A stretch of DNA of 64,000 nt from Octopus vulgaris (Eukaryota). A program made the position numbers and the translations under genes. The notes beneath the pieces are model-generated. The model had not been told where the DNA came from and ran no database searches. It worked only from the letters and a program-made list of their open reading frames with translations. Within the stretch, counting starts at the first letter, position 1. Each line of letters opens with the position of its first letter. The stretch spans positions 29,202,001 through 29,266,000 of the forward strand of contig OX597820.1 of NCBI GenBank assembly GCA_951406725.2, read 5' to 3'. Shown here piece after piece: positions 994 through 63,611 of the stretch.

Positions 994-1072
994 TGCTGCT
1001 CTTCATATTCTAATGCCACAAACAGTAAAAATGGTATTTGCTAAAGCAGAATAGCTGCATAATATTAATAGG

Positions 1073-1117
<45 letters not shown>

Positions 1118-1389
1118 TTCTGTAAAAGTGCAACACAACTGAGAAAATACTTCAGTCTAAGACTAAATATTTTGGAAGTTTGTGATAAATGAATATGCCA
1201 AAGTAACCAAAACTAACCAAAAATATGTACTACATCTGTGAGTGTGTGTGTGTGTGTGTGCATGTAGGTATATGAAATCTTCCATTTATACACGTATGAA
1301 TATACAAACACACAAGCATATACACGCATGCACCCACACGTAGATATATATCTATATATATGTGCGTGTGTGTATATGTACACATACTT

Positions 1390-1575
1390 TTTGTGCGACT
1401 TTTTTCCTCCGTCTTTCTTTTCTCTTGGATTTTCCTCTGATTCCTGTTTCTGACGAAGGTCTTTGCTCGAAACCTAAAAGCTACCTTTCTTTCCTTCCCT
1501 GAGCGCCTGCTAATACTTTGCATGTACCATGTCCTCACGTTGTTGATTTTTTCTTGTGTTTGTTCTTCGTTTTTT
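1390..1575 (+). mobile_element. Penelope-like element terminal (pLTR) fragment with degenerate hammerhead
   Basis: TTT-CTGACGA-A..GCTC-GAAAC motif at about 1447-1480, T-rich tail running into a microsatellite; related to the minus-strand copies at 1700 and 2163. Confidence 0.5.
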
Positions 1576-1597
1576 TTTTTTTTGGGGGGGGGGGTAC

Positions 1598-1632
<35 letters not shown>

Positions 1633-1653
1633 ATTTATATGTATAGATATGTA

Positions 1654-1699
<46 letters not shown>

Positions 1700-1703
<4 letters not shown>

Positions 1704-1912
1704 GAATTCACAAAAAAAAAACAAAAGACGAAGACAGGTGGTGTAGACAACAAACAGATGTATTAGTATAACGCTCGGGAAGTCAGAAAGTCCTTAACGT
1801 TTCGAGCCTACGCTTTTCGAGAGAAAGGAACACAGAAATAAACAGGGAGAGAAAATAGAAAATAGAAAGAGAAAATAGAAAAAGGTTTAGTGGCTAATGA
1901 TCTATCATGTCG
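1700..1912 (-). mobile_element. Penelope-like terminal fragment (copy 1)
   Basis: Near-identical to 2163-2350; minus strand reads AAGCGTAGGCTCGAAACGTT (hammerhead stem II/GAAAC); abuts (TA)n. Confidence 0.55.
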
Positions 1913-2018
1913 AATATATATATGTTATTCGAAATATATAGTATCAAATATCCATCACGGCTGGTCTTTGGCGGGGACCAAACACAGACACAAAGAAACA
2001 CAAACACAGACACGCACG

Positions 2019-2079
<61 letters not shown>

Positions 2080-2128
2080 TTATCTAGTTTCAGCTCACAA
2101 GCTGTGGCCATGCTGGGGCACCGCCATT

Positions 2129-2160
<32 letters not shown>

Positions 2161-2162
2161 TA

Positions 2163-2350
2163 AGGAGAATTCACAAAAAACAAAATCGAAGACAGGTGGT
2201 GTAGACAACAATCAGATGTATTAGTATAACGCTCAGGAAGTGAAGAAGTCTTTAATGTTTCGAGCCTACGCTCTTCCACAGAATGGAACACAGAAAGAAA
2301 CAAGGAGATAAAATAAAGAATGTGTAGTGGCTAGCGACCTATCATGGCGA
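2163..2350 (-). mobile_element. Penelope-like terminal fragment (copy 2)
   Basis: Repeat of 1700-1912; minus strand CTGTGGAAGAGCGTAGGCTCGAAAC. Confidence 0.55.
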
Positions 2351-3049
2351 CAAAAAAAGTTTAGAAAGTATTAAAAAAAAGTTACGAAAAGTTCAAAAGG
2401 TTCAAAAGCTTAAGATGTCGTGATGTATTGGAGCGATTTTTCATCAACAGAGGAGTCCAGTGTAATCCACAGGTAGGGGGGCGGTTGAAGTGTAGAAAGT
2501 CCAGTAGAAGTTCGTGGGTGATGAGAGGAGACAGGATCAAATATATATAAGACTATTTTCTTTTCAGTTGCTCTATACTAAATCCTCATACAAGGATTTG
2601 GTCGGCCCGAGGCTACAGAAGAAGACACTTGCCCAAGATTTCATTCAGTGGGACTGAACCTGAAGCCATGAGGTTGAGAAACAAGTTTCTTAACCACACG
2701 GCGACGGTTGCACTTTATATGAAATAGTTTAACATAGTTCCACATTACTTAAAGATTTGTATATATAAGACACGTCTACTTCGTGCTATTTCCTTTCTGT
2801 GCTCTTTTATTCGTGTGTATATACACATGTGTTTGAGTGTGTGTGGGAGGAGGGCGTAAGCACATAAATACCTTATATTTCCTTTGTGTTTGATAGAGTC
2901 TGAGACTAGATTTACGAACAAACGCACAAGACCGAAAAACTTCGCGGAGCATCCAACCGTATCATCACATTCGAACGAACATTCATACATTCAAACGCAC
3001 TTTATATTGCATTAAATAAAATTATATGTGTGCATCTGTGTGTGTAGAT

Positions 3050-3135
3050 AGGTAGGTAGGTAGGTAAATAGGTAGGTACGTAGGTAGGTAGGTAGGTAGG
3101 TAGGTAGGTAGGTAGGTAGGTAGGTAGGTAGGTAA
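3050..3135. repeat. (TAGG)n microsatellite
   Basis: Direct reading. Confidence 0.95.
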
Positions 3136-3370
3136 GAGCTTTTACAATCTACCTCTAACGAGAATCGTGAGATTTGATAACATTGATATCAGCGTAGCGC
3201 ATTCATCATTAATAAAAATATTTTCTACATCGCATGTGTTGAGTTTCTTACTGTGAGACTGATCGTCTTCGTTTTCTGATTAAGAGAGTAGCATGTATAT
3301 ATATATATATATATACATACATACATATATACATATGTACACATATGCATATATATATATAAATAAATAA

Positions 3371-3427
<57 letters not shown>

Positions 3428-3474
3428 CATACATATATACATATGTACACATATGCATATATATATATAAATAA

Positions 3475-3521
<47 letters not shown>

Positions 3522-3523
<2 letters not shown>

Positions 3524-3686
3524 CAAAGGAGTGGTCGTGTTGTAATTAGTTTGCTTACCAGCCACATGGTTCCGGGTTCAGTCTCACAGTGTGGTACCTT
3601 GGGCAAGTATCTTCTACTATAGCCTCGGGCCGACCAAAGCCTTGTGACTGGAGTGGATTTGGTAGACGGAAACTGAAAGAAGAACG

Positions 3687-3734
<48 letters not shown>

Positions 3735-3920
3735 ATATGTTTGTATGTCTGTGTTTGTCCTCCCACCCTCACTTGACAACCGATGTTGGTGTGGTTACGT
3801 TACCGCAACTTAGCGGTTTGGCAAAGAGACCGAGAGAATAAGTCCTGGGCTCGATTTGTTCGACTAAAGGCGATGCTCTAGCATGGCCGCAGTCAAATGA
3901 CTGAAACAAGTAAAAGAATA
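3522..3920 (+). mobile_element. tRNA-derived SINE family A (internal microsatellite)
   Basis: A/B-box-like head (GGGTTCAGTC), CCTTGGGCAAGT core, internal (TG)n, tail ending ACAAGTAAAAGA; more than 12 copies in the window. Confidence 0.88.
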
Positions 3921-3930
3921 CCCATACATT

Positions 3931-4004
<74 letters not shown>

Positions 4005-4171
4005 GGCACGAAGCCTAATGGTTAAAGGGTGTTGCACTCACAATTGTTAAGATTGTTGTTTTAATTCCTGAACTGGGTGAAGTGTTGTGTTCTTGAATAA
4101 AACACTTCATTCCAAATTGGTCCAGTTCGCTCAACTGTGGAAAATGAGACCCCCATTAGTGAATAGATAAG

Positions 4172-4518
4172 GTGTGATTTTTCATCAGGACAATGCGAAG
4201 AGCTTGGTTGGGAAAAAATTTCTCATCCACCCTATTCTCCCGACCTTGCTCCTTTAGACTACCATTTGTTTCGTAGTTTACAGAATTATTTGGGGAACAT
4301 AACTTTCGCAAGTCAGGAGGAGGTCGAAACTGACATTTCAGTGTTCTTCGCTTTGAAACCAAAGCGAAGATGTGATTAAAAAGCTTGTAAATAGATGGAA
4401 TGAAGTCATAGATGATCAGGGAAAGTACTTTGATGAATAAATTTCAATTAAATATAACATTTGATCACTTGTTTTCTTTATTCAAAATTCGGACAGAACT
4501 TGTGGGATGACATGATAA
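4172..4518 (+). mobile_element. Mariner transposase C-terminal remnant plus right TIR
   Basis: Translates VIFHQDNA...GWEKISHPPYSPDLAPLDYHLFRSLQNYL (YSPDLAP mariner motif). Confidence 0.85.
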
Positions 4519-5372
4519 TAAATTGAATAATTAGATAATTATTTAAAACTGTTATTATTAAAGTTTCCAGTAAATAAATTGTTGGTATTGTGCCTAAAAT
4601 AGAAGAAATTATTATTTTTAAAGTCTTAAATAGGGCAAAAAAATTTTTTTTTTTTAGTCTTGGAAAGGTTTGATCTATGGATAAATAACGACGCTACAAC
4701 CATATTGAGTCTCCTAATTTCTTTCATATGGTTGTACTGAATAGCAAAATGTCCCTAGATCCCTAGATTCCATTATGCCAAAACATTAGTATTCATAGCA
4801 TTCCTCTATTCTTCCTAATTTGTACTTTCCACATAACTCCCAATGGGCGGACGATGTGGCATTATCATTCATAGTTCCTCTATTGAGTTAATTTATTTGC
4901 TGCATTTAGTAACAAAACTAACAGCATAGAATAAGCCTTCAAAATAATCAATATACGAAACGGAGTATTGTGCATAGGCGCAGGCAGAAGCGTATGGTTA
5001 AAAAGTTCACTTCACAGTTACTTATTTCAATGTACAATTCTCAAAATGCATTGCGAATGCAGTTCACTTTCTTCGCAGCCATTTTGCAGGAGCCGTTTCA
5101 AATCTTATGTTTTTATGAGTGTAGATCTACAGAAAACCTACATATAACTAATATTTGTGAAACCTACTTCTGTTCATATCATTGTTATATCGTCGTCGGC
5201 GGCGTTTTTATCGTGTGTCCGATAATTCATTTGGCTTTTTCTTGGCTGCTTCTTCCCCTCTGTCCGTGTTTATGCCTCTGATGACTAATGAGGCCAATTC
5301 TTGTATGGAAGCATCTATTGTAAAGTCCACGAGGGATCCGTTGTGGGGGTTTTGGTTCTTTCTTGTCGTTTC

Positions 5373-15173: not shown

Positions 15174-16151
15174 TATTTCTAGTCTAGGCACAAGGCTTTG
15201 GGAAATGGGGATAGTCGATTACATTGACCCCAGTGCGTAACTGGTACTTATTTAATCGACCCCGAAAGGATGAAAGGCAAAGTCGACCTCGGCGGAAATT
15301 TGAACTCAGAGCGTAGCGGCAGACGAAATACAGCTAATCATTTCGCCCGGCGTGCTAACGATTCTTATTTCTTTACTACCCACAAGGGGCTAAACATAGA
15401 GGGGATAAACAAGGACAGACAAACGGATTAAGTCGATTACATCGACCCCAGTGTGTAACTGGTACTTAATTTATCGACCCCGAAAGGATGAAAGGCAAAG
15501 TCGACCTCGGCGGAATTTGAACTCAGAACGTAGCGGTAGACGAAATTCCTATTTCTTTACAACCCATAATCGGCTAAACACAGAGAGGACAAACAAGGAC
15601 AGACAAAGGGATTAAGTTGATTACATCGACCCCAGTGCGTAGCTGGTACTTAATTTATCGACTCCGAAAGGATGAAAGGCAAAGTCGACCTCGGCGGAAT
15701 TTGAACTCAGAACGTAGCGGCAGACGAAATACCTATTTCTTTACAACCCATAATCGGCTAAACACAGAGAGGACAAACAAGGACAGACAAAGGGATTAAG
15801 TCGATTACATCGACTCCAGTGCGTAGCTGGTACTTAATTTATCGACCCCGAAAGGATGAAAGGCAAAGTCGACCTCGGCAGAATTTGAACTCAGAACGTA
15901 GCGGCAGACGAAATACCTATTTCTTTACAACCCATAATCGGCTAAACACAGAGAGGACAAACAAGGACAGACAAAGGGATTAAGTCGATTACATCGACTC
16001 CAGTGCGTAGCTGGTACTTAATTTATCGACCCCGAAAGGATGAAAGGCAAAGTCGACCTCGGCAGAATTTGAACTCAGAGCGTAGCGGAAGACGAAATAC
16101 TGCCCGAAATACTGCCCGGCGTACTAACATTTCTGCCAGCTCGCTGCCTTG
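15174..16151 (-). mobile_element. Head-to-tail array of about five SINE family B units
   Basis: Period about 183-185 bp; core GCCTTTCATCCTTTCGGGGTCGATAAATTAAGTACCAG; 16-bp TSD GACCGAGCTAAATAAT at 15158-15173 and 16152-16167. Confidence 0.9.
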
Positions 16152-20207: not shown

Positions 20208-21456
20208 CACACACATATACATATATATCTACACACACACACACACGCATATGGCTCTTTCTCTAGAGTGCTATTAACCTCTAAATTTATTTTCTGACCA
20301 AGCTAAATACGCCTCCTTATACTAAATTAATTAATTAATTAATTAATGTATTTATGTGATTCGTTGTGTGTCTCGTAATTATTGTCGTGTAAGGTTATAG
20401 ATTTCCAAAAAGTATTGGCGAACACATTTTTTCTCAACTGTCTACCTATACCAAGCGATGTAATATCAGTTAATATCGAAGATCAACGACTTCCTGTATA
20501 AATCTGTTCACCATTTTTCCGATCAGTTGAAAAAAAAAAAACATCATTTTATTTTCCTTTTTAACTTGTGTTAATAGTATTTTTCTTTCATTATAATTTC
20601 TTATTTTTGTCTTTATTTAAAACGAAGTGAAGGTTACAACCAAAATTATATTTCAGCATAATCACAAAATTACATCGAAATTCGATTAAATTGAATTAAA
20701 GCAACAAAAAAAAATGATATAATATAAAAAAATAAAAACAGCAAATTAATATAATATCGTAAGCGACCAGAATTAATGATACCCCATGCGACATTAAGTA
20801 ATTAAACGATAACTTGAGATTATAGTCTAAACTTTAAAATTGACAAATTAATTAAACCTTTTTATACAATTATGTAGGAATTACCATCTTTCGTGTGAAA
20901 TTCTGCAGAGATTACAGTCATCTTTCTTCATTAACTTAGGAATTTGAGTTTGCCGAAAAGAAGCCGTGTTATATAGATATGTATAGTGTGTGTGTATGTG
21001 TGTGTGTGCGCGCGCATGTTTAATGTTTGTATCTGTCTGTACAAATGATTTTATTCAAAATATTCCTTTACCAGATTCACACACTTATTGCAGTGGTCCT
21101 TCAGTTTTTCTAAGCCTTGTAAAAAACAATCGGAAGGCTGGGCCTCCAGTTAGGCCTTTCACGACACCCTTAAAGCCAGGAACTTTTCAACATCCCTTCG
21201 TATATGTGTTTATATAAAAATAAATATGAACAAGAAGGATCGACAATACTCAATACTGAAAATACTTGATATTGTATACATTGAAAGAACGATACGCATT
21301 CCGCTTCTAATAAATGTCATAGACAAACACACAGAGAGGAGAGCAGACAGACTGACAGACACACACACACAGTGGGGGAACCTAATATTTGGGGAAATTT
21401 GGGGGAGGGGTAGTCGATTACATCGACCCCTGTACTCAGGTTTTAGCTTTAAGGTT

Positions 21457-21514
21457 TTAGGGTTAGGGATAGGGTTTTAGGGTTAGGGCTAGAGTTTTAG
21501 GGTTAGGGTTAGGT
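21457..21514 (+). repeat. Degenerate (TTAGGG)n tract
   Basis: ttagggttagggatagggttttagggttagggctagagttttagggttagggttagg. Confidence 0.7.
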
Positions 21515-21779
21515 TGTCATAAATAACAGTGACAAACGAAATATACACCGCCGGGAGTTCTTGTTGACAAACAGCAGCAGTAATTTTATTCAGTTGAATA
21601 CACGTCATTGATTGGTTGAAATTGCCGAAATACGACAACTTTAACGTGAAATAACTTCCTAAATATAAGCTTTTCTCAAAAACACTAAGAGTAAAAGATG
21701 CTTTATATGACACATTCTACCAGTGTCCGAAGTTTGAAAGTGTTTAGTTACAAAAAATTATTTTTTAAATCTGTCGGTC

Positions 21780-22373
21780 AAAAGGTGAAGATCCGGAAAA
21801 AGTAACTAAGAAAGAATGGGAAAATAAATGGCATATGGTGACATATGCGAAAAGCACGGAAAGTGAAAAGAAGATAAAGAAAAGGAAGATGGTAATAAGA
21901 GTGAAGCTAACACCAGAATTTTATCCTGAGAGTACTAAGGCAATTGTGATTGACAACGAGAGGTGTGAGAGACTAAGAGAATTGATTGGAAGCAAGATAG
22001 ACTCAATGGGGGATGCGCGTGGAGTTCGATGACTTACCGCCAGTAATAGATTACAGGAACTTAATACCTTACATAAAATGGTGAGAAAAAGGAAAAAGAA
22101 AACGAGAAAAGAAAAGTAAGTGTTTGAAATTCTATGACTGTAAAACAGATGAAAAGAAAAGGAAAAAAGAGAAAAATGAAAAATGATATAAAAACGTTAA
22201 ACAAAAACATTTAAATGATTCTGCTTGCGAATGGGGAGCATGCAGCCATTTCGCATTCATTATTATAATTCATCCTCCATTCGTTCGTTCTGTGTTTTGT
22301 CCCCACTGTAATGTCCTATCTGTCCTTGTGCTGTCCCCTCTGTGTATGAGGCTAAGTGCTTAAATAAGAAATA
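21780..22373 (+). mobile_element. 5'-truncated copy of the ORF1-only retroposon family
   Basis: MVIRVKLTPEFYPESTKAIVIDNERCERLRELIG then frameshift to FDDLPPVIDYRNLIPYIK; 3'UTR hairpin; tail TGTCCCCTCT...AATAAGAAATA. Confidence 0.72.
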
Positions 22374-25649: not shown

Positions 25650-26132
25650 AAGGCCATGACCTGGCAGAGCTTAGCTGCATTTCGTCTGCCTTTACGTTCT
25701 GAATTCAAATACCACCTAGGTCTATTTTGCTTTTCCTCCTTTCAGGTTTGATAAAATAACTATCAGTTAAGCAGTGAGGATCGATATAATCGACTTAATC
25801 CCTCCCCCGAAATTGCTGGCCTTGTGTCAAATTTTGAAATCATTATTATTGAGGCGGCGAATGCGGCGAGCTGGCAGAAACGTTAGCACGCCGGGCGAAA
25901 TGCTTAGCAGTATTTCGTCTGCCGTTACGTTCTGAGTTCAAATTCCGCCGAGGTTGACTTTGCCTTTCATCCTTTCGGGGTCGATAAATTAAGTACCAGT
26001 TACGCACTGGGGTCGATGTAATCGACTTAATCCGTTTGTCTGTCCTTGTTTGTCCTCTCTGTTTAGCCCCTTGTGGGTAGTAAAGAAATAGGTATTTCGT
26101 CTGCCTTTACGTTCTGAGTTCAAATTCCGTCG
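25650..26132 (+). mobile_element. SINE family B copies (one diverged, one full-length plus partial repeat)
   Basis: GGCGAGCTGGCAGAA head, GAGTTCAAATTCC B box, tail ...GCCCCTTGTGGGTAGTAAAGAAATA. Confidence 0.85.
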
Positions 26133-26164
26133 AGGAATGTGTAGTGGGTAGCGATATATATATA

Positions 26165-33674: not shown

Positions 33675-33700
33675 CATATATATACATATATATATATATG
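33160..33700. repeat. (TA)n/(TACA) microsatellite
   Basis: Direct reading. Confidence 0.97.
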
Positions 33701-35980
33701 ATTTTTTGATTTTGATTTGATTTTTGATTTTTCCAGTTTCAGCTTATGAGCTGTGGCCATGCTGGGGCACCGCCATTTGGTGTTGCTACTTGGTTTCACT
33801 TCATGAAGGCTTTCTAGCAGCTGCTATTTGGTGCATGAGAGAGTTCGATGCAGCTGCCCTCATCTGCCCCTCCTGCCGTGAAGTTGGTTCATCTGGGACA
33901 TCTGACAGGAAGAGATCCAGCTTCATTTTAAAGACATCTGTATCCACCCCATGCAGGTCTCTCAGGTTCTTCGGGAGGATATTGAAGAGCTGTGGGCCTC
34001 GAAGCCCAGGCTATCACAGAATCTTGTCCTACATCTTGATGGCAAGTTTGGAGTCCTAGGCACCACGCAGTGGCGCCCAGTTCTGGCATTTGCGTAACTC
34101 TCGATGCCAAAGTTCAGGACCCTTCCCTCCAGGATCTTCCAGATGTATATTATGGCATATCTTTCCCGCCTACGCTCCAGGGAATATAATTTTAATTTCC
34201 TGAGTCTTTCCCAGTAGCTTACATTCTGCATAGAGGCTATCTTCTTCGTTTAGCTACGTTGGATCGCCTCGAGCTCTGTGATCAACTTGACACTGGATGG
34301 TGACCATAACTGAGAGCAGTAGTCAAAGTGGCTTAGGACAAGTGTCCTCCAGAGGACCATCATGGTTTCTTGTTCTCTTGTTCTAAAGGTTCTGAGGATC
34401 CATCCGGCCAGTCGTCTACATTTCATTGCCAATTTAGCAACATGTACACGAAAGGTCGCGTCATCACTCATGTAAATACCTAGGTCACGCACTGATTGTG
34501 CCTCTGGGATTGCTATTCCTCCGGGTCCAGTGTATTCATTGGGTATTGCATTTAGTTTTGCATGCTGATAGTATAGAGCTTGAAACTTTTCAGCATTGAA
34601 CTGCATGCTATTCTTTTCGGCCCACTTGTATATTTTGTCTAGCTCACATTGCAGGTGTTTAGTGTCCTCAGGGTTCTGTATTGCCTGTGAAACTTTTGTA
34701 TCATCTGCATAACTTGTGATCGTGGCTCTCTGCGTGGCTGAGGGCATGTCTGAGAGGGCCATTATGAACAGTAGTGGTCCCAGAACAGTGCCCTGCGGAA
34801 CACCGCTCACTATTTGCGTGTTAATGGAAGTGGCCCCATTGGCCGCTACCACCTGACTTCTATCTTTCAGAAAGTCATGAAGCCATTCTCCCCGTTTTCC
34901 AACTATGTTGAGATCACGCAGTTTGTGACATATCATTCCATGATCGACTTTATCAAAGGCCTTTGCAAAGTCGAGATATATCACTTCCACATTTGAGTGG
35001 TTGAGCAGCCGTTTCAGCACCCAGTCATAGTGTTGTAGGAGCTGAGTTAAACAGCTTCTCCCTGGTCGGAAACTATGTTGGGTGTCGGGCAGCAAGTCAT
35101 TTTCTTCAAGGAAGGTGATCAGCTTCCTTCTGACTATTCGTTCCATGACCTTGCTGATGTGTGAGGTCAGAGAGATAGGTTTATAGTTCTTGGCTTCCGC
35201 TCTGCTACCTCCTTTATGAATGGGGCATATTTTACCTTCCTTCAGTTTTCTTGGAAGTTTGCCAGCTGCAAGGAAACTCTGAAAGAGGAACTGCAGTGGT
35301 CTTGCTAGGACTCTCTTACATGCTTTTAGGAGGATTGCGGGAATCCATCGGGGCCAGTAGCTGAGTCTGTTTTCATTTCATCTATAGCCTTGATTACATC
35401 GTCTTCCTTTATATCGATGTAATCTATCGTCGCCGCCTCTGATTTTATATCTGCAGTGGTAAAAAAGTCAGTTGGATTGGTGATTTGGAGATGCCCAAGG
35501 AGTGGAGTGAAAACACTCTTGAATTGCTAATTCAGTATTTCACTTACCCTCATTGGTTTTCCTGTAAGTGTGCCATCCTTTTCAAGGAGTGGCCCTATTC
35601 TACAGTGCACCGTAGCTGTTTCTTTGGCATACCTGTAGAAAGCTCTGGGGTTAGATTTTATGCTGTCTATAGCCCAGGCTTCTTTGTCTGCTCTTTCCTT
35701 TTCATGGGAGAGTTTCAGACATTTTTCGATTTCCAACAGTTTTATTTTTAGGCGGGACTTTTCACTGCTTTCAATCTGTTTGTTTAGGCGATTTGAAAAT
35801 TTTGTACGCCGTCTCATTAGAATTTTCCTCTCTCTGGGGATTTTGTTCTTGTGTACAGTGGCCTTTCTCTCTGGGACATATTTGTAGCATATGGCTTGCA
35901 TTACAGACATGAATTGTTGAAGTTTCACGTCGATGTCTGGCGAGGAGAGACATTTAGGCCAGTTTTGTTTGAGGATCTCT
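33700..35980 (-). mobile_element. CR1/L2-group LINE, 5'-truncated, few disablements
   Basis: ORF 34250-35146 with RT motifs QHSFRPGRSC, YLDFAKAFDKVDH, GVPQGTVLGP, YADD, RDLG; continues in ORFs 35527 and 33962; (AATCAA)-like tail. Confidence 0.92.
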
Positions 35981-45910: not shown

Positions 45911-45924
45911 TATATATATATTAA

Positions 45925-46364
45925 ATAAATCTCTGAGCGCGGTATAAACAGTAGCTGCACGACATCGTGAAATATATTTGTCACTTAAATGTAGCTAACC
46001 CTTAAGGGTGGATGCTACTGTAGCTTGTAGCCCCAGGAGGACACCTCCTCCAGCTGGCTATTGGCACACTTTCTGTGCCCTATCAGTATTTGCAAAGCGA
46101 AGCCATCCTTCCTATCTTCAATCTGACATGATATTCAGGAACTCGAGTCCGTGTGTATCATGTCAGATTGAAGATGGGAAGGATGGCTTCCCTTTGCAAA
46201 TACTGATAGGGCACAGAAAGTTTGCCGATAGCCAGCTGGAGGAGGTGTCCTCCTGGGTCTACAAGCTACAGTAGCATCCACCCTTAAGGGTTAACCACAT
46301 TTAAGTGGCAAATACATTTCACGATGTCGTGCTGCTACTGTTTTTAACTCGCTCAGAGATTTAT
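45925..46364. repeat. 440-bp foldback palindrome
   Basis: Two about 220-bp arms in near-perfect reverse complement centred on ACTCGAGT (46141-46148). Confidence 0.92.
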
Positions 46365-46466
46365 AATTACTTGTTCACACTTTTTCGACATCAGTGACTT
46401 TTCGTCACTGGAAAAAGGATATATATTTTCAAATGGGACCCACTATTCATCGGCAATCGGTGATTG

Positions 46467-47876
46467 CACTATTGGGTGTTGGTAGTGAATTCTTCAATGT
46501 GAATTCAAATTGTTACACACTGATATTGTATTTTTGTTGAAGGTTCCCCGCGCCGGTGAATCAAGATTCGTTGGATTGTGTAAATTATTGAATTTCAGCC
46601 ACTGTTTCGTTTGTACCTGTATAATCCCCCTCTACGGGAGGAGTGAAGAAAGATGGAGAATAGACAAAGTTACGCAGCGGCAACGACACAAGGAATAAAT
46701 ACCTACATCCTGGAAGTACAGGAAATAGAAATGGACATAAGAAAGAGGAAAGAAGGAAGAAAATTTGTAAAAAAGGAGGGCACCAGTCTAAAGCTGACTC
46801 CCCCGGAAGAACTGATGAAAAGCATAGAGAAGAGGACGGTAGAATACAGAAGGTTATCTACGTCCTCGAACAAGATAGAGGTAGCCCCAACAGAAGAAAT
46901 AGAGGAATGCCTCGAAAATGTGAAAAAATTGACCACGTTCTATACACATGGAAAGAAGTATGGCTCAGTGGAAGTAAGGTTTGGAAACGAAGATGCCATA
47001 AACCACTCCACGGAGCAGTTACGGACAACGAAATGGATACTACTTCTGACGTACTGTGGCAAACGCGCTGCCAGAGTGAAAGCTGGAAGAGTATCCGCCG
47101 AAATCGAGGAAGAATGACTGGTAGCAGCCATAATGCACGATATGAAGGATGGAGTTGAGATCCTCAAGATAACGAGGACCCCAAAATCCATTTAGTGGGG
47201 AAATAGCCTCGAAGTGACCATGCAGGTATCTTTGGAAGATTTGCATAGTATAGCGGAGGAAATAATACTCCCGGAAGACGTCAGACTTCGAATAACAGTA
47301 GAAGGAAGACCACCAACATGCTTCCTATGCGGCAAAAATGGGCACAAGATGTCCTGAGAAGGAAAATGAAGAGGAGAAGAAAAGTGGAGAAAACAATACC
47401 GAAGAGGTAGTACCAACGAAATAGACAGATAGAGTGGAGGAACCCTTCACAGTAGTAAACACGAAGAAGAGAAAGGAACGGGTGAATTCTCCCCCAGACA
47501 GTCAAAAAAGGCTAAAGGAGATTGTTATGAAAGAAAAGAGAAATAGGTGTGAAGCGCCAACTGAAGCAGTAAGTAATGAAGGCACACAGGGAAAAACAGC
47601 ATTACAACAGGGAGAAAAAGGAAGCGTTCATAAGATTGGTTATGATGTTTCTGCACGCCCGAACAGATCAGGACAGGAGCCGAAGCAAGCAGAAGTGAAA
47701 AGGAAGAGATATAAGTGGCTGTGTGGTAAGTAGCTTGCTAACCAACCACATGGTTCCGGGTTCAATCCCACTGCGTGGCATCTTGGGCAAGTGTCTTCTG
47801 CTATAGCCCCGGGCCGACCAATGCCTTGTGAGTGGATTTGGTAGACGGAAACTGAAAGAAGCCTGTCGTATATATG

Positions 47877-47911
<35 letters not shown>

Positions 47912-48678
47912 TTGTCCCCCTAGCATTGCCTGACAACCGATGCTGGTGTGTTTACGTCCCCGTCACTTAGCGGTTCGGCAAAAGAGACCGATAGAATAAG
48001 TACTGGGCTTACAAAGAATAAGTCCCGGGGTCGATTTGCTCGACTAAAGGCGGTGCTCCAGCATGGCCGCAGTCAAATGACTGAAACAAGTAAAAGAGTA
48101 AAAGAGTAAAGAGTATTCCAAAAGTAAAGAAATAGAGAAAACGATTGTAAAATTTAGATCGGCAATAAGAATAAAGCTGCCGCCAGGAAAATACCCGGAA
48201 TACACAAAGGGAATAGTCATAGACAAAGAGAGATTTTTGAAATTGAGAGAGATGTATGGACTTTTCATAAACCGGCTGGGGGTTGAAGTCGTGTTTGACG
48301 AGCTCCCGCCGGTCGTGGAATTAGATGATTTGAAACCCTTTATGAACATTTAAAAATAAGTAAGTAAAATTTGTACTTCATATAAAAAAAAATGAGGAAA
48401 ATAGACTGTTAAAAAATTTAAAGAAGGAAAAACATTATCAAAAAAAGACTGAGAAAAAGAACGAGCTAAAAAAGAAAAAAAAAAGAAAAGACTGTAAGAA
48501 CATTTAATTGTAAAAAAGTAATCACGGTTTCGTCTCGGAGCGGGACCGAGAAAACCGTTTTCATATTCATTTTAATTTAATTCATTGTAATTCATTCTTT
48601 CATATGTTTTTTTTTTTGTTCCCGCATGTTTATGTATGTCCCCTCTGTATTCAGGCCTTGTGCTTATAATAAAGAGAA
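46467..48678 (+). mobile_element. ORF1-only retroposon, full-length degraded copy with nested SINE A
   Basis: TSD AATCGGTGATTG (46455-46466, 48679-48690); disrupted ORF 46653-48353 with EGRPPTCFLCGKNGH knuckle, colinear with the 54418-55782 protein. Confidence 0.8.
47712..48115 (+). mobile_element. SINE family A nested in the ORF1-only element
   Basis: Matches consensus. Confidence 0.9.
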
Positions 48679-48729
48679 AATCGGTGATTGTCACACGCTG
48701 ATCACGGGTCAATACCCAGACATCGGAAA

Positions 48730-49139
48730 CAGGACATTGTCGCGATGAATGAAAAGCTTGCACGATAAACAACATCGTGTATCCCGGTGACAACAGAATC
48801 AAAGAGAAAGAAGAAGAAATACTGAACAACTGCGACGATTTGAAGTGAGAAATACGAAGGGTGTGGTCAATGAGGAGAGTAGACGTGATACCAGTAGTAA
48901 TTGGCGCACTCGGAAGTATCAGCACTCAACTACCAACATTGCTCAAAAAGTTTGGTACAAATGTAAAGATGGAACACCTACAAAAACCAGCATTGCTTGG
49001 AACTGCAAGAATTCCTCGCAAAGTTCTTGAAGCATGACCAGAAAATACGTGTCACCTTAGTCTGCCGGCTGTGGACAGCTGACACTTTCCATCATAACCA
49101 GTAAAACAAGATGAGAGTTTTCATCAAATAATAATAATA
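48730..49139 (+). mobile_element. R4/Dong-like LINE 3' end (restriction-like endonuclease region)
   Basis: PGDNRIKEKEEE...EIRRVWSMRRVDVIPVVIGALG...LQKPALLGTARIPRKVL*; (TAA)n tail; short second copy at 49657-49755. Confidence 0.75.
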
Positions 49140-49237
49140 TTTGTATTGGCCACAAGGGCCGCAAAAACACATTAAAGGCAAAACAAAGGCAAAGGGAAAT
49201 GAGGATATTCATAAACAGATCTAAACAATAACAATTT

Positions 49238-49655: not shown

Positions 49656-49779
49656 TATGAAGTGGGAAATACGAAGACTGTGGTCAATGAGGAGAGTAGA
49701 CGTGATACCAGTAGTAATTGGCGCACTCGGAAGTATCAGCACTCAACTACCAACAAAAAATATCTTACATTCCCCAATA

Positions 49780-52205: not shown

Positions 52206-52657
52206 ATTAGTACCAATTCTGTATCTAATGATATGTAAAAAGTAATGAAGGAGTTCTCTCCCTTAAATCGGTTCATTAATAATAGTTATCTTCCTTACAT
52301 TTTTTTATTTCAAATTGTTGTCTCCCGTTCAAAACAATTAGTTTATTACACAGAAATAGTATCTAACTGCGCGCGTATACGGATATGTACGTGTTTCTGT
52401 AATGTAATAAGATTAAACACAATATATAATTAATAATTAATAATGGTTAAGGAGCTAAAAACATTGCTTTGCAGCCAAGCAGTTTCTGAGTTCGATCCCA
52501 CGCATTGTTCAGAATATGCAAAAGCCAAGTCACGCCGCACGTGTGTACGTGTACGTGCGTATGTGTGTGTGTGTCGCGTATGTAAACAAGTACATAACTA
52601 AATGAAAATTGTGTAAGAGAAACAGAAATTGTTCCGTATATTGTCGCCCACCATTAC

Positions 52658-53067
52658 CTATTTCTTTACTACCCACAAGGGGTTAAACACAGAGACGACA
52701 AACAAGGACAGATAAACGGATTGAGTCGATTATATCGACCCCAGTGCGTAACTGATACTTCTTTAATCGACCCCAAAAGGATGAAAGGCAAAGTTGTCCT
52801 CGGCGGAATTTGAACTCAGGACGTAGCGGCAGACGAAATACTTATTTCTTTATTGCCCACAAGGGGCTAAACATAGAGTGGATAAACAAGGACAGACAAA
52901 CGGATTAAGTCGATTACATCGATCCCAGTGCGTAACTGGTACTTAATTTATCGACCCCGAAAGGATGAAAGGCAAAGTCGACCTCGACGGAATTTGAACT
53001 CAGGACGTAGCGGCAGACGAAATACTGCTAAGCATTTCGCCCGGCGTGCTAACGATTCTGCCAGTTT
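52658..53067 (-). mobile_element. SINE family B dimer
   Basis: Two head-to-tail units; 10-bp TSD CCACCATTAC (52648-52657, 53068-53077). Confidence 0.88.
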
Positions 53068-54062
53068 CCACCATTACTGATGACACTGAGGAACTCTCCT
53101 GGCGAAAGCATATTCTTGATATAACGAGGACCACGTCCCAACAACTAGCCTTTCTTTTCAGATGCTTCATTCTCACCCCCAGTAATTAGTGATAAAGCTC
53201 GGATGAAACCATCCACAATGGTACATTGATCTTACATCTGTGGTGGAGCTGTCACACACACACACACACACAGCTGTCTCTTATTACATCTAGAAAGAGT
53301 ACCCAACTCATTTGTTCAGGCCTTGAGCCCATGTCTGCTTTCTCACTGGCTTTTTATTTTACATATTTTACAATCATGTGGATTCTAAGAGTTCGTAAGC
53401 GTTAGCATGTTTTTGTGTCTGTGTGTTCGTTAGGCGTAAAAAGGTACTGACCAGTGAAATGACGATGGGATTTGATTCACAGTTAATGTTGTTGGTATCG
53501 GCTTGGCAACAGGTAATAACAGATGGCTTAAGGTAGTTCTTAGAAGAAACTAGAACCCAAGAACAGATAATTGATTTACCGTTTATGAGGTACACTGTAA
53601 GAGTTCCCAATCAAGATATTGCATGTCGCAGTTGAGATTAATTGAATCACTCGTTGTGTTTATCTTTCTCTTGATATGAATATACTTCCAGACATGTTAC
53701 TGTAGCCGTTTTTTCCGTGGCGAGAATTTCACCTAACCGCTATAGTTGAATCTGTAGTTGTCTCGTGTACAAATTAAATCTTCGATGTTTGTCGATTGGT
53801 TCTTGTTGCTTCTTCATTATTTTCTGCTTGGTTATTTTTCTCTAGTTATAGATATCTTGTAACCGTTCTTCATGGTGATTTTTCACACTAACATTATAAG
53901 AGGTATCTGTAACATCTTGTATTACTGGTGGTCGCCTGCCTTCGGACTGGAACTTGGTCGAGTATTCTCTGTGTGGTCAGAGACTTAGCTCTTAAAAGAA
54001 CTAAAAGCCTAAGACGAGCTCTGTGGTCAGAGGTTCGCCCTGAGAAGGGCTGGAAACCTAAG

Positions 54063-55920
54063 TATTTCTTTATTACCCACAAAGGGGCCACGAAGAGGGG
54101 GACATTACAAGACGGGACATGGGGTACATAAAGTAAAAATAAAATATGAAGTAAAGATGAATTATATGTAATGAGATGGAACGGCTTACGAACCCCCAAC
54201 TCGCAGTTCCGTTTAAAATACAATTGCACATTTCACAATTACATATATTCCAGTTCAAAATACAATTTTACAGTTACATATATTCCAGTTCAAAATACAA
54301 TAATTTTACAATTTACATTTTAACATTACATATATTCCTGTTCAAAATACAACTTTACATTTTACAATTTTACAATTAACAATTTTACTTTTTAACCTTA
54401 CATATATTCTAATTCTTTTATATTGGACGTTCGTCCGTCATATATTCTAATAGGTCCATTTGGTCTATTACATTTGGTAAATTGTCATACCGTACATAAT
54501 GCGTTATATGAATAGCATTAAATATCCTTTTTAACCTTGTGTATGTTTCCCTCTCCACAATTGCGCCCTTCACATCGTCACCATACAGTTTTGGGCTCAC
54601 CCTCACCCTGACCAACCCCTTCCCACCTGCAAGTCTCTCCTCCACCTCTGCATTCCTGATACACATCACAACCACCTTCAGGTTCCCTCCCGTAGGCCCC
54701 CCTCCACACCTACACGATTCCAACCGCCCGCTCACTCCCGTCTCCCATTCCTGTTCAAACTCTGTCCTTGGCCGCTCTCTCGCCCTCTCCTCCACCTCCT
54801 GCTCCTTGCATGCTCTCTCTTCCCCCTCCTCTGCTATCCTGCTTTTGATCTTCCTCCCCTCTAGAACTTTCGGTGGTGATTCCACCCCCGTTCTCCTCCC
54901 ATCCTCCGTTCTTTCCTCCTCTGCACCTGCTCGCTCCCCTCCCGCATCCCCATTCAGCTGCTCCTCCACTCCTGCCTCCTCCGCCTTCGCTTCCTCCTGC
55001 ACCTCTCCCTCCTCCACACACGCATCCTCACACTCCTCCACCACAGCCTCCGGTGCTTCTGCTCCCTCCCGCGGGCACACATCCCTCATGTGGCCCCTCG
55101 ATCCACAACTATAGCAGATTGGGGGTCCTCCCTCCACCACAACTCCAAGCCGCGTCTCATCAGGGTAGACCAACTCCTCCGGGATATTGCACAGGCCTCG
55201 CACGGCCATGTGTGCCAGAACCTGCACCGCACATCCCCACCACTCAACCTCTGCTGACCTCTCCACCTTCAACACCTCCACACCATCCTTGCAGTTGAAA
55301 ACCACTGCCGCCAACAACCTCTCCATATTAAATTCGGGCGAAATTCCACCAATTCTCATCCTCACCGCCCCCCCTCCGCAGCAACTTGGTAGCAAAGTCC
55401 ACCCATCCGATTTCAAAACTCCTGTTGCACTCTTCCCTGCTTCACTCTCTGTTTCGAAATACACCACCACCGCGGCACACCTCCCTCCTCCTTTGAAAAA
55501 TGTGGGCTCACCCTCAACTTCCTTCAGACACCCCTCCACCTCTTCCATCTCTGCCACTTCAACCCTCCTCGACGCCACACACCATGTCCTGTACGCCATC
55601 ACACGCCTCTCCGCGTTGCCTTCCTCCTCCTCGGACGGTGTGACCCTCACGCAGCCACCCTCCCTCCTCAAACCGTCGAAATACCTTTGCAAAGTCCTCC
55701 GCTCGACCACCACCTCCTCCATTTCCAGTTCACTGGCAACCAGGCCTCCGCCCGCCGCTCTCGCACAAGTCCACTCTTGCATTTTCAAGAATCTCAAAAA
55801 AAAAAAAAAAAAAAAAAAAAACCATTCCACGTCCTCCAACGAACTCGAACTCACAACCTCCTCACAATGACGCACTCGAAACAAACACACCAGAACAACT
55901 CCAACTAACTAACTCAAAGA
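54063..55920 (-). mobile_element. ORF1-only non-autonomous retroposon (HAL1-like architecture), intact copy
   Basis: 13-bp perfect TSD CTGGAAACCTAAG (54050-54062, 55921-55933); single ORF; AT-rich 3'UTR; tail ...GCCCCTTTGTGGGTAATAAAGAAATA; no RT or endonuclease. Confidence 0.85.
54418..55782 (-). CDS. Gag/ORF1-like protein with CCHC zinc knuckle (454 aa from the first ATG)
   Basis: VEGGPPICYSCGSRGHMRDVC (CX2CX4HX4C), acidic linker, C-terminal domain conserved in two other copies; the ATG at 55782 aligns with MENRQSYAAA of the 46653 copy. Confidence 0.8.
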   Translation of the reverse strand: MQEWTCARAAGGGLVASELEMEEVVVERRTLQRYFDGLRREGGCVRVTPSEEEEGNAERRVMAYRTWCVASRRVEVAEMEEVEGCLKEVEGEPTFFKGGGRCAAVVVYFETESEAGKSATGVLKSDGWTLLPSCCGGGAVRMRIGGISPEFNMERLLAAVVFNCKDGVEVLKVERSAEVEWWGCAVQVLAHMAVRGLCNIPEELVYPDETRLGVVVEGGPPICYSCGSRGHMRDVCPREGAEAPEAVVEECEDACVEEGEVQEEAKAEEAGVEEQLNGDAGGERAGAEEERTEDGRRTGVESPPKVLEGRKIKSRIAEEGEERACKEQEVEERARERPRTEFEQEWETGVSGRLESCRCGGGPTGGNLKVVVMCIRNAEVEERLAGGKGLVRVRVSPKLYGDDVKGAIVERETYTRLKRIFNAIHITHYVRYDNLPNVIDQMDLLEYMTDERPI

Positions 55921-56008
55921 CTGGAAACCTAAGACGAATATTTTTCTGAGAAACCTTGTTTTATAAGCTTCATCAGGCTCCCAGTGAACTTCAGAAATGG
56001 AAAGCTGT

Positions 56009-56735: not shown

Positions 56736-56954
56736 ATAATATCTATAGTCTTCAAATTAGCTTTCCCCTTTCTGGTTTCAAGAAGCCTAATTTCTCAAGA
56801 TTAGTACTTAGGCAGTATGCTACATATCGCAGTGCCCCAACAATTACAGGTATAAACTTGAACTTGTAATCTGGGTAGAGTAAGTAAATTTCTCAATAGT
56901 TCAGCGTAGGTATTTTCTTTTTCGCTGATTTTTAGCTTTATGTTAATATTGAGA

Positions 56955-57056
56955 GAATAAAAATAGGCTGGGCAAAGTTCAGAGAGCTTCTACCTCTGTT
57001 AGCAACAAAGAGCCTCTCTCTCAGAGTGAAAGGCAGACTGTATGATGCCTGTGTGC
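56955..57056 (+). mobile_element. Short fragment of the RTE family seen at 61655
   Basis: TGGGCAAAGTTCAGAGAGCT...AGAGTGAAAGGCAGACTGTATGATGC matches 63113-63195. Confidence 0.8.
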
Positions 57057-57598
57057 CACATAAGAACAACCATGCATCCATTCTTACACCTATTTCCTAA
57101 AATAAAAAAGAACTAGCTGTACATATATTTCATGCTAGATGAAGACAAAAAAAAAAAAGAAAAATAACAATAAAAAAAGCTAACATTATATAAAAATTTA
57201 TTGTCTTGATTTTCGTTTTGTCTTTGATGTTATTTCATCTTTTCTTTTTTTGGTTTTAATATCAAGAGCAACATTCTTTTAAATCTGAACAAATTTATAC
57301 AGCAGTGAATGAAATGAAATAAAAATGGGTGGTAACAATTTTGTTTTTGTAATTACATCATGGGTAATGAGGGATGGGGTGTAACACTGAAAACTTTATC
57401 TCCACATAGTATGTATGAAATTGGCCAGCTGGAGCACTCATAACACTCTATCTCTCTTTTTCACTCTATTTCACTTTCTCTCTTATCGGCAGACTGTAGG
57501 TAGATCATGAAGTGAAACAGCACCTTCGTTAGTGAACAAGATAAATTAAACCTGACTATTTACAACTTATGTTTCTTTCATGGAGAAATAATAATTTT

Positions 57599-57954: not shown

Positions 57955-58622
57955 TAATGGTTTCAAATTTTGGCAGGTCAGCTAGGGGGGAAGGGGGTTA
58001 GTCAATTACATCGACCCCCAGTGTTTCACTCGCCAACACTTTCTACTAAAGCACAAGGCCTGAAATTTTGGAGGAGAGGGATAGTCAATTACATCAACCC
58101 TAGTACTCGACTGGTACTCGTTCCACTGACCCCGAAAGACGAAAGGCAAAGTCGACCTCAGAGGAATAATAATAATTCTACTATAGGCACAATGTCAGAA
58201 ATTTAGGGGAAGGGGCTGGTCAATTACTTCGGCCCCAGGGCTCAACTGACACATTATTTTATTGACCCCAAAAGGATGAAAAGCAAAGTTGACCTCAGCA
58301 GTATTTGAACTCAGAACGTACAGCAGAGAAGAAATGCCGCTAAGCATTTCGTCCAGCATGCTAATGATTCTGCCAGCTACCTTTAATGATAATAATTCTT
58401 ACTGTTATAAGCACAAAGCCTGAAATTTTGGAGGAGGGTGAGGATAAGACAATTAATTACATCTATACCAATGTTCAATGGTACTTATCTTATTTTATCA
58501 ACCCTGAGAAGATGAAATGTAAAGTCAACCTTGGCGGAATTTGAACTCAGAACTAAAGAGCCGGAAGAAATCTGCTAGGCATTTTTCCCAATGTGCTAAT
58601 GATTCTGTCAGTTTGCTGCCTT
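57955..58622 (-). mobile_element. Cluster of diverged SINE family B copies
   Basis: Repeated CACAAGGCCTGAAATT tail and GATGAAAGGCAAAGTC core, with many CpG transitions. Confidence 0.8.
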
Positions 58623-59069
58623 AAGAATCTGCTATAATAATACTCTTGTGTTTTTCCCTGTCACAACATATGAATGAGAAAGGAAGGAGTGATAGATGAA
58701 AAGGAAGGTAGGGGTGATGGCAAACTGGTAGTGGGAGCATTTCAACTCTATGTGAGTATATATGTATGTAAAAGGGAGGTATGTGAATGTTTGTGTGTGT
58801 GTGCAATGGAAGTGGGATGGTGAACATTCAACACTGAAAAGAAAAATCAAACAGTGTTTCAACTGTGTGTGTGTGTGCATGTATGAGGGAAGTATGTGAA
58901 TATTTGTATGTGTGAGCCAGCGTTCTTTCAGTAACAAACGACAATCAATGTCACATCTCAAAAGACAACCACTAGATAACATTGACAAGTGTAATAATTT
59001 GATTTGCCATTCATATTTATATATAAAATACTGTCATTTTTAATGGTACGGGGCCAGCTAGTAATAATA

Positions 59070-59287
59070 ATAATCCTTTTTACTATAGGCACAAGGCCTG
59101 AAATATGGAGGAGGGAGCATAGTCGATTACATCAACCCCAATGCTCAACTGGTACTTATTTCATCAACCCCAAAAGGATGAAAGGCAAAGTCAACCTCGG
59201 CAGAATTTGAACACAGAACGAAAAGACAGACCAAACGCCGCTAAGCATTTTGCCCAGCATGCTAACGATTCTGCCAGCTTGCCTCCT
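59070..59287 (-). mobile_element. SINE family B
   Basis: Full-length, CpG-decayed. Confidence 0.82.
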
Positions 59288-61565: not shown

Positions 61566-61654
61566 TATGCACATGGCCCAGTGGTTAGAGCAATAGGCAC
61601 ACAATCATGAGGTTGTGAGTTCGACTCCCAGACAAGGCTGTGTGTTGTGCTCTT

Positions 61655-63611
61655 AGAAGCTAGGAGACAGGTTTATTTAGCCAGAGGGGAAGCAGATAAG
61701 AAAAAATTTGCCAATGTTCTGCGCCGTGAGGACCAAAGACTGGAGGTGTTTCGTGTTGCAAGACAGTGTGTGAGAGAGAATCGTGATGTGGTAGGAGAGA
61801 AGTGTGTTCGCATGGAAGATGGTTCACTTGCGCTAAATGAGGATGCAAAGAGAGAGGTTTGGAGATGCCACTATGAAAGGTTGCTGAATGAAGAAAATGA
61901 ATGGGATAAAGAGAGTCTGCCGAATGTTGACCCAACAGAGGGACCAGCTATCCGAGTTGATAGTTCCGTGGTAGCTAAGGCAATTAGAAGCATGAAGACA
62001 GGGAAAGCCCCAGGCCCATCAGGAATCACTGCAGAGATGCTCAAAATGTCTGGTAGTGTCGGCTATAGCCTAGTCACCCGTATAGTTAATCAGGTGATAC
62101 ACAAAGGGGTCATACCCAATGACTGGTGTAGCAGTATAATAGTCAACTGCTACAAAGGTAAAGGTGATGCCCTAGATACAAATAACTACAGAGGTATCAA
62201 GCTGTTGGACCAGGTGATGAAGGTTACGGAGAGGGTCATAGCCCAACTAATTAGAGAGAGAGTTAGTTTAGATGAGATGCAGTTTGGGTTTGTGCCAGGG
62301 AAAAGTACTACTGATGCTATATTCCTGGTAAGGCAGCTGCAGGAGAAATACCTAGCCAAAGATAAGCCCCTGTACCTGGCTTTTGTTGACATGGAGAAAG
62401 CCTTCGACAGGGTCCCCCGATCCCTTATCTGGTGGGCAATGAGGAAACTAGGGATAGATGAATGGTTAGTGAGAGCTGTGCGGGCCATGTATAGGGACGC
62501 CGCTAGTAGGGTGAGGGTTGGAAATGTGTACAGTGAAGAATTCCGGGTAGAGGTAGGAGTCCACCAAGGCTCAGTACTCAGCCCCCTCCTATTTATCATA
62601 GTCCTCCAGGCAATAACGGAGGAATTCAAGACAGGATGCCCTTGGGAGCTCCTCTATGCTGATGACCTTGCTCTAATTGCTGAGTCGCTATCAGAACTGG
62701 AGGAGAAGTTTCAGGTGTGGAAACAAGGATTAGAATCGAAGGGCCTCAGAGTCAATCTAGCTAAAACCAAAGTCGTAATCAGTAGGAAGGTAGACAAATC
62801 ACAAACACCTTCAGGTAGATGGCCCTGCTCGATCTGTAGAAAAGGTGTAGGTAGAAACTCTATAAGATGCACCAAGTGTAAGCTATGGACACATAAGAGA
62901 TGCAGCAATGTCAAAGGAAGGCTAACTAGGAAGATGGTTTTTGTATGTGGCAGATGCTCAGGAACAATAAACACTGAAAATGCTCTGAGACCAACTTCCG
63001 TCACTTTCCAGGGAGAAAAACTAGAAATAGTTGATAGTTTCCGTTACCTAGGTGACCAAGTCAGCAGCGGGGGCGGGTGTGCTGAAAGTGTAACTGCTAG
63101 AGTAAGAATAGCTTGGGCAAAGTTCAGAGAGCTCTTACCTCTGCTGGTGACAAAAGGCCTCTCGCACAGAGTGAAAGGCAGACTGTATGATGCGTGTGTA
63201 CGAACAGCCATGCTACATGGCAGTGAAACATGGGCCGTGACTGCTGAGGATATGCGTAAGCTCGCTAGAAATGAAGCCAGTATGCTCCGATGGATGTGTA
63301 ATGCCGGTACTCACACTCGGCAGAGTGTAAGTACCTTGAGAGAAAAGCTGGACCTAAGAAGCATCAGTTGTGGTGTGCAAGAGAGACGTTTGCGCTGGTA
63401 TGGTCATGTGGCGAGAATAGATGAAGATAGTTGTGTGAAAAAGTGCCACACCCTAGCGGTTGAAGGAACCTGTGGAAGAGGCAGACCCAGGAAAACCTGG
63501 GACGAGGTGGTGAAGCACGACCTTCGAACTTTAGGTCTCACTGAGGAAATGACTAGAGACCGAGACCTCTGGAAGTGTGCTGTGCGCGAGAAGACCCGGC
63601 AGGACAAGTGA
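61655..63611 (+). CDS. RTE reverse transcriptase (about 650 aa, endonuclease missing) with embedded PHD-like zinc finger
   Basis: KAPGPSGI, NYRGIKLL, QFGFVPGKSTTDAI, AFVDMEKAFDRV, GVHQGSVLSP, YADD, FRYLG; CSIC..CTKC..H..C..CGRC insert. Confidence 0.9.

Follow-up and report, generated by a model that had tools for sequence, protein, structure and literature searches.

Three deeply diverged ORF1-only elements of a putative non-autonomous retrotransposon family in Octopus vulgaris

Structure and copy number of the elements

A 64,000-nucleotide stretch of Octopus vulgaris contig OX597820.1 (positions 29,202,001 to 29,266,000 of the forward strand; hereafter the window) contains three elements, E1, E2 and E3, that belong to three very different subfamilies and carry an identical stripped-down layout devoid of reverse transcriptase (RT). 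Their features, in window coordinates, are as follows.

46455..46466, + strand: left target-site duplication of E1, 12 bp, exact repeat
46467..46652, + strand: 5'UTR of E1, 186 nt, without detectable similarity to the E2 5'UTR
46653..47348, + strand: N-terminal part of E1 ORF1, predicted RRM-RRM-CCHC, with the fold inferred from the E2 model
47338..47718, + strand: charged linker of E1 (~125 aa) in a second reading frame, with a stop at 47422
47719..48107 (approximate ends), + strand: SINE of ~390 bp nested in the E1 coding sequence, with many copies in the window
48108..48353, + strand: conserved C-terminal domain (CTD) of E1, 81 aa, and stop codon at 48351-48353
48354..48678, + strand: 3'UTR of E1, 325 nt, with an A-rich proximal part followed by the conserved tail at 48515-48678
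48653..48665, + strand: terminal stem of E1, 4 bp with a 5-nt loop, just 5' of the AATAAA-like end
48679..48690, + strand: right target-site duplication of E1, 12 bp, exact
54050..55933, - strand: E2, with a 13-bp duplication at 54050-54062 and 55921-55933 and the unit at 54063-55920
55782-54418, - strand: intact ORF of E2, 454 aa, with a 138-nt 5'UTR and a 355-nt 3'UTR with the same tail
21826..22373 (start approximate; ~21.8-22.4 kb), + strand: E3, the third member, 5'-truncated, with the CTD, a 288-nt 3'UTR and the same tail

E1 is a complete insertion that decayed later, both the decay and the nested SINE having come after the insertion. The 12-bp target-site duplication described in an earlier note made from the sequence is exact and occurs twice in the whole window, against a chance expectation of ~0.0005 such pairs near the E1 ends (200x20 box of end positions); once the SINE is removed, E1 measures 1,823 bp and E2 1,858 bp, which bears out the similar size reported there. 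While E1 is thus a real element bounded by its duplication, its ORF is not intact as a coding sequence: stops at 47115 and 47193 in the N-terminal part and the third in the linker are premature, near 47345 the reading frame shifts within the zinc knuckle, and the coding sequence is interrupted by the SINE. The O. sinensis protein P0064, which is 73-86% identical to E1 and 74% identical in the linker, runs uninterrupted across the SINE insertion site. The same note had the E1 protein end after the zinc knuckle and pass directly into an A-rich 3'UTR. This reading of the protein was wrong, because the linker and the CTD precede the stop codon; an A-rich 3'UTR does follow the stop but begins only past the CTD, and its longest open frame is at most 51 aa.

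Within the window, tblastn aligns the N-terminal parts of E1 and E2 over 225 aa at 35% identity (E 1e-36), the three peptide pairs quoted previously were all found in colinear order, and the E1 CTD is homologous to the end of the E2 ORF (23% over 75 aa, E 6e-10). The weak nucleotide similarity claimed for this pair holds for the 5'UTRs, which cannot be aligned (711/1000 shuffles score equally well), and in blastn of E1 against the window, where the matches are SINE copies and microsatellites only, with E2 not among them; it does not hold for the last ~165 nt, which align in all three pairs of elements with scores of 91-91.5, each reached by 0/1000 shuffles. By contrast, the UTR just 3' of the stop cannot be aligned, shuffles being as good in 827, 549 and 157 out of 1000 cases for the three pairs, and consequently no common deletion junction between E1, E2 and E3 is demonstrated.

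E3 was detected with a profile built from seven CTDs. It has a frameshift within the CTD and a stop at 22083-22085, and a search for a target duplication around it found none. CTD nucleotide identity is only 63% for E1/E3, 51% for E1/E2 and 58% for E2/E3, which makes the three elements distinct subfamilies. All three window members bearing this CTD nevertheless have the order CTD, stop, UTR of 288-355 nt and same tail, with stop-to-end lengths of 288 nt in E3, 325 nt in E1 and 355 nt in E2. Each element has one ORF and no endonuclease (EN) or RT, the Pfam result for E2 being zf-CCHC only; no ORF2 remnant was seen in the 3'UTRs of the three elements, where the longest open frame is 64 aa. Target-site duplications (E1 and E2), 5' truncation (E3), a defined tail and the lack of introns and LTRs are features of retrotransposition. 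The proposal that E1 and E2 are deeply diverged members of one family with the same RT-less layout is therefore supported, and the divergent third copy strengthens the case. The window yielded no autonomous element bearing this ORF1 or tail.

Contigs of four sequencing runs were aligned to the window at 80% identity or more. At 16 listed places in E1, run X1 yielded 2-25 contigs with another letter and a summed depth of 258-5127, compared with 62-82 in the unique flanks; E2 had up to 12 contigs per place with other letters and a summed depth well above that of its unique flanks, depth over either element not being a copy number. Most of the depth at 47194 comes from copies without the E1 stop at 47193, and summed depths are similar in ORF bins and UTR bins for E1 and E2 alike. 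In addition, one diverged contig (36 other letters, 20 gaps, 294 nt) covers 48113-48423 and runs through the stop into the UTR. On the basis of this contig, the places covered by multiple contigs and the three window members, the elements have replicated as a family in ORF1-only form. Sporadic defective copies, that is, one-off products of internally deleted or template-switched autonomous LINEs that never replicated without ORF2, would fit with there being just one diverged contig that clearly connects the E1 stop with the UTR. SINEs swamped the joint and loose-end tables, in which neither an empty site nor an ORF2 junction was legible. However, the layout occurs in every one of the three members within 64 kb, the connecting contig comes from another copy that has this junction too, and the ORF and UTR depths are similar, making this explanation improbable. 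Separately, at several places in 46614-48292, runs X2 and X9, which carry two organism labels, retain approximately single-copy unexplained depth while X1 retains none, which weakly hints at E1 being common to both labels or missing in one sample.

The encoded protein, its relatives and its constraint

An AlphaFold model of the E2 protein (42-sequence alignment) shows the knuckle and two alpha/beta domains, both confident, in residues ~60-240; the linker (243-361) is disordered, and the CTD (368-447) is again confident. Fold searches led to tandem RRMs (IMP3 RRM12, best Foldseek E 3e-4), the best structural match being the La RRM (Z 9.2, rmsd 2.6, 82 aligned). The zf-CCHC match, at E 0.003, is below the Pfam cut-off, and a PDB sequence search gave knuckle matches only, none at E 0.001. 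Atlas neighbours of the N-terminal part belong to CCHC and ZCCHC3-RBD clusters (0.87-0.93), which we treat as a lead only. Structural matches of the CTD model (pLDDT 79) were no more than middling, with ferredoxin-like domains in the majority (best Z 5.5, rmsd 3.3, 75 aligned); searched alone, the CTD had no Foldseek match at E 0.001 and its Atlas rows were all below the naming bar. It may be a degenerate third RRM.

From these models, the protein is predicted to comprise RRM-RRM-CCHC, a linker and a ferredoxin-like CTD, an RNA-binding type of ORF1 most like those of L1/Tx1 elements. Transposase_22, the mammalian L1 ORF1 type, is not among the Pfam matches listed for E1 and E2 or for any of the 150 scanned relatives. 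A Type I-like ORF1 (RRM + CCHC), as present in this family, is not exclusive to Tx1: RRM + CCHC ORF1s of non-mammalian animals have been described as consistent with Tx1 and are also present in several LINE clades (PMC5203782, in part). ORF1 architecture is the single basis on which the family would be assigned to the L1/Tx1 clade. In a distantly related metagenome locus (L001, 31% identity), an APE-like frame with a weak Exo_endo_phos match (E 0.04) begins after an ORF1 of the RRM + CCHC kind.

HMMER recovered 537 related proteins at E <=0.001 from a 50%-identity library, two of the top rows being poly-knuckle artefacts; a word-based homolog search with full-length E2 gave 0 matches, which is uninformative given the HMMER result. 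When 30 matches were looked up, all 21 relatives with a species name were octopod (O. bimaculoides, O. sinensis, O. vulgaris and Argonauta hians). Among proteins of 162-2000 aa, the CTD profile matched seven, all from Octopus and all with the domain at the C-terminus. Since this architecture is found in both O. bimaculoides and O. sinensis, it is likely older than their split; the split of O. bimaculoides and O. vulgaris has been cited as 13.3-33.5 Mya (PMC13282606, in part). Median pairwise identity in the family is 25% across dozens of lineages. For 65 of the 162 profile matches a quick tree was computed, which contains no autonomous reference ORF1s and does not bear on the question of origin; E1 and E2 group there in a single 9-row clade (SH-aLRT 96), and CTD-bearing proteins also occur outside it.

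Autonomous elements may be the source of many of the 150 ORF1 relatives in the database. Pfam families of EN or RT type were found in 0 of the 150 best matches, a result that is uninformative because ORF1 and ORF2 lie in separate frames (for P0006, two families were not seen), and fused ORF1-ORF2 models numbered 0 among proteins of 533-2000 aa, a weak result because known long members were missed as well. Most database relatives are fragments, and some are annotated as octopus genes. In P0015, P0121 and P0151, ORF1 fragments are fused into WD40, LDL-receptor and astacin models, which are probably gene-prediction chimeras. P0153 and P0160-P0173 belong to a 28-member cluster at 90% identity, a distant relative of 640 aa with a faintly similar C-terminal motif; we take this cluster to be a young family in another genome.

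Comparison of the N-terminal parts of E1 and E2 gave identities of 0.51, 0.62 and 0.32 at codon positions 1, 2 and 3, with 9/42 fourfold sites identical. The proportions of synonymous and non-synonymous differences were pS 0.82 and pN 0.45 for E1 and E2 (295 codons), 0.80 and 0.32 for E1 and E3 (76 codons) and 0.84 and 0.44 for E2 and E3 (72 codons); the excess of pS over pN was reversed in 0/2000 bootstraps for each of the three pairs. With synonymous sites saturated and pN at 0.32-0.45, the protein evolved under purifying selection between copies, and saturation of dS means that the splits cannot be dated by it. The earlier note had concluded that the ORF1-only state is old and was kept under selection. 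The constraint on the protein stands; its placement in the RT-less state does not follow, because an equal dN/dS would result if several related autonomous families had each undergone their own deletion, and pS/pN is compatible with the presence of ORF2 during selection. Compared with other copies, E1 shows 8/10 listed differences that are non-synonymous, as neutral decay predicts, while 6/12 differences listed for E2 are synonymous (P 0.03 for a neutral share of 0.225 and P 0.17 for 0.33, from a biased list).

The terminal tail, SINEs and neighbouring elements

E1, E2 and E3 all finish a few bases past an AATAAA-like motif with no A run and therefore lack poly(A). The tail end type of E1 matches that of three SINE copies at 58-59 kb, and the type of E2 matches that of four SINE copies at 15, 26 and 52 kb. 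Over 11 such ends the stem-loop pairing is kept in 43/44 cells, with both sides changed in a compensatory manner at 3/4 pairs, whereas slid controls reach 51% at most. The 11 ends were hand-picked and amount to little more than two tail types, and the structure itself was deduced from them; the compensatory pattern corresponds to about one event between these types and is therefore suggestive. RNAalifold on the tails gave no credible consensus structure, and an Rfam scan of 45-60 kb of the window returned nothing at gathering level. A larger hairpin upstream in the tail was rejected as a conserved structure, since it beats shuffles in E1 only (shuffles as good: 4/200 in E1, 81/200 in E2 and 26/200 in E3).

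A scan with the tail pattern found 0 occurrences in prokaryote contigs and 0 in viral contigs, and the tail is absent from the RT elements of the window (RTE, CR1-like and Dong-like) where their ends are readable, the RTE end lying beyond the window. We infer from the tail that a partner RT recognises such an end, and SINEs bearing the same stem-loop would then use the same partner as E1-E3. The tail also bears on whether the elements could be retrocopies of a domesticated host gene family, similar to L1TD1 or ZCCHC3, scattered by LINE machinery. Such a family would account for the constraint on the protein, for its features similar to ZCCHC3 RNA-binding domains and for the several relatives annotated as octopus genes. 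Nonetheless, we consider it very improbable: even E2, whose ORF is intact, is intronless and flanked by a target duplication, poly(A) is absent, the tail is common to SINEs, and the relatives are mostly fragments in dozens of lineages with a median identity of 25%.

A terminal stem-loop common to SINEs together with a lack of poly(A) is typical of tail-recognising LINEs, and absence of poly(A) is unusual for L1-clade elements. The ORF1 or the partner might thus come from another LINE clade (CR1/L2/Rex1 or the I group), making the family Ag-Sponge-like rather than HAL1-like, and the occurrence of RRM + CCHC ORF1s in several clades would fit this as well (PMC5203782, in part). Duplications of 12-13 bp, a single-knuckle two-RRM ORF1 near ZCCHC3-like clusters and the different 3' end of the CR1-like element in the window argue against this explanation, which we regard as rather unlikely.

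Several other repeats lie in the window. A second SINE family forms head-to-tail arrays at 15213-16099, 25679-26136, 52655-53026 and 57990-59235, and has at least two alternative 3' tails on one body. At 49120-49232 (- strand), a fragment of ~100 nt has the same terminal stem-loop type followed by (ATT)n but no match to the 165-nt tail profile; it may represent the 3' terminus of a different family or of the autonomous partner that was not seen. An RT frame at 34250-35377 (- strand) together with 33700-33800 (RVT_1, E 8e-30) belongs to an element at 34.2-35.4 kb whose 3' end matches that of the SINE nested in E1, the two being a probable LINE-SINE partner pair. An open 666-aa RT frame at 61611-63611 (+ strand; RVT_1, E 7e-32) has a PHD-like zinc finger after the RT and a further fragment at 56954-57079; from its motifs we take it to be probably of the RTE clade. 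Adjoining the right duplication of E1, the decayed 3' end of a LINE at 48691-49110 (+ strand), of which ~100 nt recur at 49657-49755 past the next SINE, is from its motifs presumably of Dong/R4 type, without Pfam support. The CR1 label of a neighbouring RT piece is likewise assumed from motifs, and among the pieces labelled Dong/R4, CR1 and RTE an RVT_1 match is shown for two only. Just upstream of E1, at ~45920-46370, lies a MITE-like long inverted-repeat element of ~450 bp that is highly repeated in the sequencing runs, and a short TTAGGG-like repeat array lies upstream of E3 at ~21440-21515.

Mechanism, origin and relation to known elements

Altogether, our results quite probably reflect a multi-copy, ORF1-only, non-autonomous octopod retrotransposon that is mobilised in trans by an L1/Tx1-type ORF2 binding its tail. 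In this mechanism, element RNA would be transcribed from its own 5'UTR and coated and packaged in cis by its own ORF1 protein, and we propose that this coating is the reason why ORF1 stays under selection. The partner ORF2 would bind the terminal stem-loop, nick the target and reverse-transcribe by target priming, leaving 12-13 bp duplications, and SINEs with the same stem-loop would be served by the same partner. Mobilisation in trans, tail binding and packaging are the steps that we infer. The L1-Tx1 families of O. vulgaris, with 80 consensus families and 13 recently active ones (421 insertions, 2.29 Mb), are candidate parents and partners (PMC13282606, in part, Table 1 and supplement).

As for the history of the family, we marginally prefer a single old origin, with E1-E3 having become RT-less only once, which is favoured by the clean and similar layout of all three copies. 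A competing history with the same mechanism, which we hold to be a serious possibility but short of probable, is that the state arose repeatedly through separate internal deletions of different autonomous L1/Tx1 families, with the constraint accumulated in the parents. HAL1 arose independently several times (PMC5753468, in part), O. vulgaris has 80 L1-Tx1 consensus families (PMC13282606 supplement, in part), and 537 representatives at 50% identity are too many for a single parasite lineage to account for easily. The proximal UTRs cannot be aligned, and the terminal stem-loops of E1 and E2 differ in type, that of E1 corresponding to one SINE subfamily and that of E2 to another. On the other hand, three divergent copies without ORF2 remnant have similar stop-to-end lengths, which would be expected to vary more after independent deletions; the ORF2 pieces in the window are only RTE-, CR1- and Dong-like (found with distant queries); and, from the biased list, half of the E2 differences are synonymous.

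Extending the single old origin, we see it as a serious possibility, though less than even, that the elements form one ancient RT-less octopod lineage with many subfamilies, diverged as far as saturation of synonymous sites, and a selected three-domain RNA-binding protein, which tracks its partner LINEs via compensatory changes in the stem-loop that SINEs have in common with it. If so, it would be a long-lived protein-coding parasite of LINEs and not a short-lived deletion product.

A poly(A) 3' tail is a feature of L1 derivatives, and HeT-A is telomeric with a long 3'UTR. HeT-A, HAL1 and Ag-Sponge are non-autonomous LINEs in which ORF1 is present, from the Jockey, L1 and CR1 clades, respectively (Kojima 2018, PMC5786205, in part). 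Similarly to HAL1, the half-L1 of mammals, which is derived from the L1 group and encodes ORF1p only (PMC5753468 and PMC5786205, both in part), the octopus family is ORF1-only, non-autonomous and multi-copy with target duplications. Unlike HAL1, its ORF1 is predicted to be RRM-RRM-CCHC with a ferredoxin-like CTD and no Transposase_22, its host is an octopod, and it has, in place of poly(A), a stem-loop tail common to SINEs. Like HeT-A of Drosophila and Ag-Sponge of Anopheles, it has one ORF1/Gag-like protein, no RT and a need for an autonomous partner, and proteins of this kind have been proposed to multimerise with those of the partner (PMC5786205, in part); it differs in that HeT-A derives from Jockey and Ag-Sponge from the CR1 clade, while the octopus family is dispersed and ~1.8 kb long with a UTR of ~0.3 kb. 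With the Octopus L1-Tx1 LINEs it has in common an ORF1 architecture consistent with the Tx1 type, a comparison made by architecture and not by sequence. It lacks their ORF2 and has ~1.8 kb compared with a mean of ~5.4 kb for recent L1-Tx1 insertions (2.29 Mb/421; PMC13282606, in part). The family thus works like HAL1, yet is not HAL1, and the mechanism is not new. We found no report of a cephalopod or Tx1-derived ORF1-only element in a literature search whose scope lay outside subscription journals and Repbase, and the portions of PMC13282606 examined, which tabulate L1-Tx1 families, do not describe one; the Zenodo library of that study may hold these consensuses unlabelled.

The ORF1-only strategy, known from mammals, flies and mosquitoes, is here represented in octopus by three deeply split subfamilies. 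RT-based classifiers cannot place such elements, and fragments of them already stand in databases as octopus genes, in certain cases joined to host gene models. The reason for ORF1 retention has so far been inferred mostly from HeT-A, and the octopus subfamilies permit selection to be measured without ORF2. Finally, the family allows parasites that carry an ORF1 to be compared with SINEs that have no ORF and likely draw on the same RT via the same tail.
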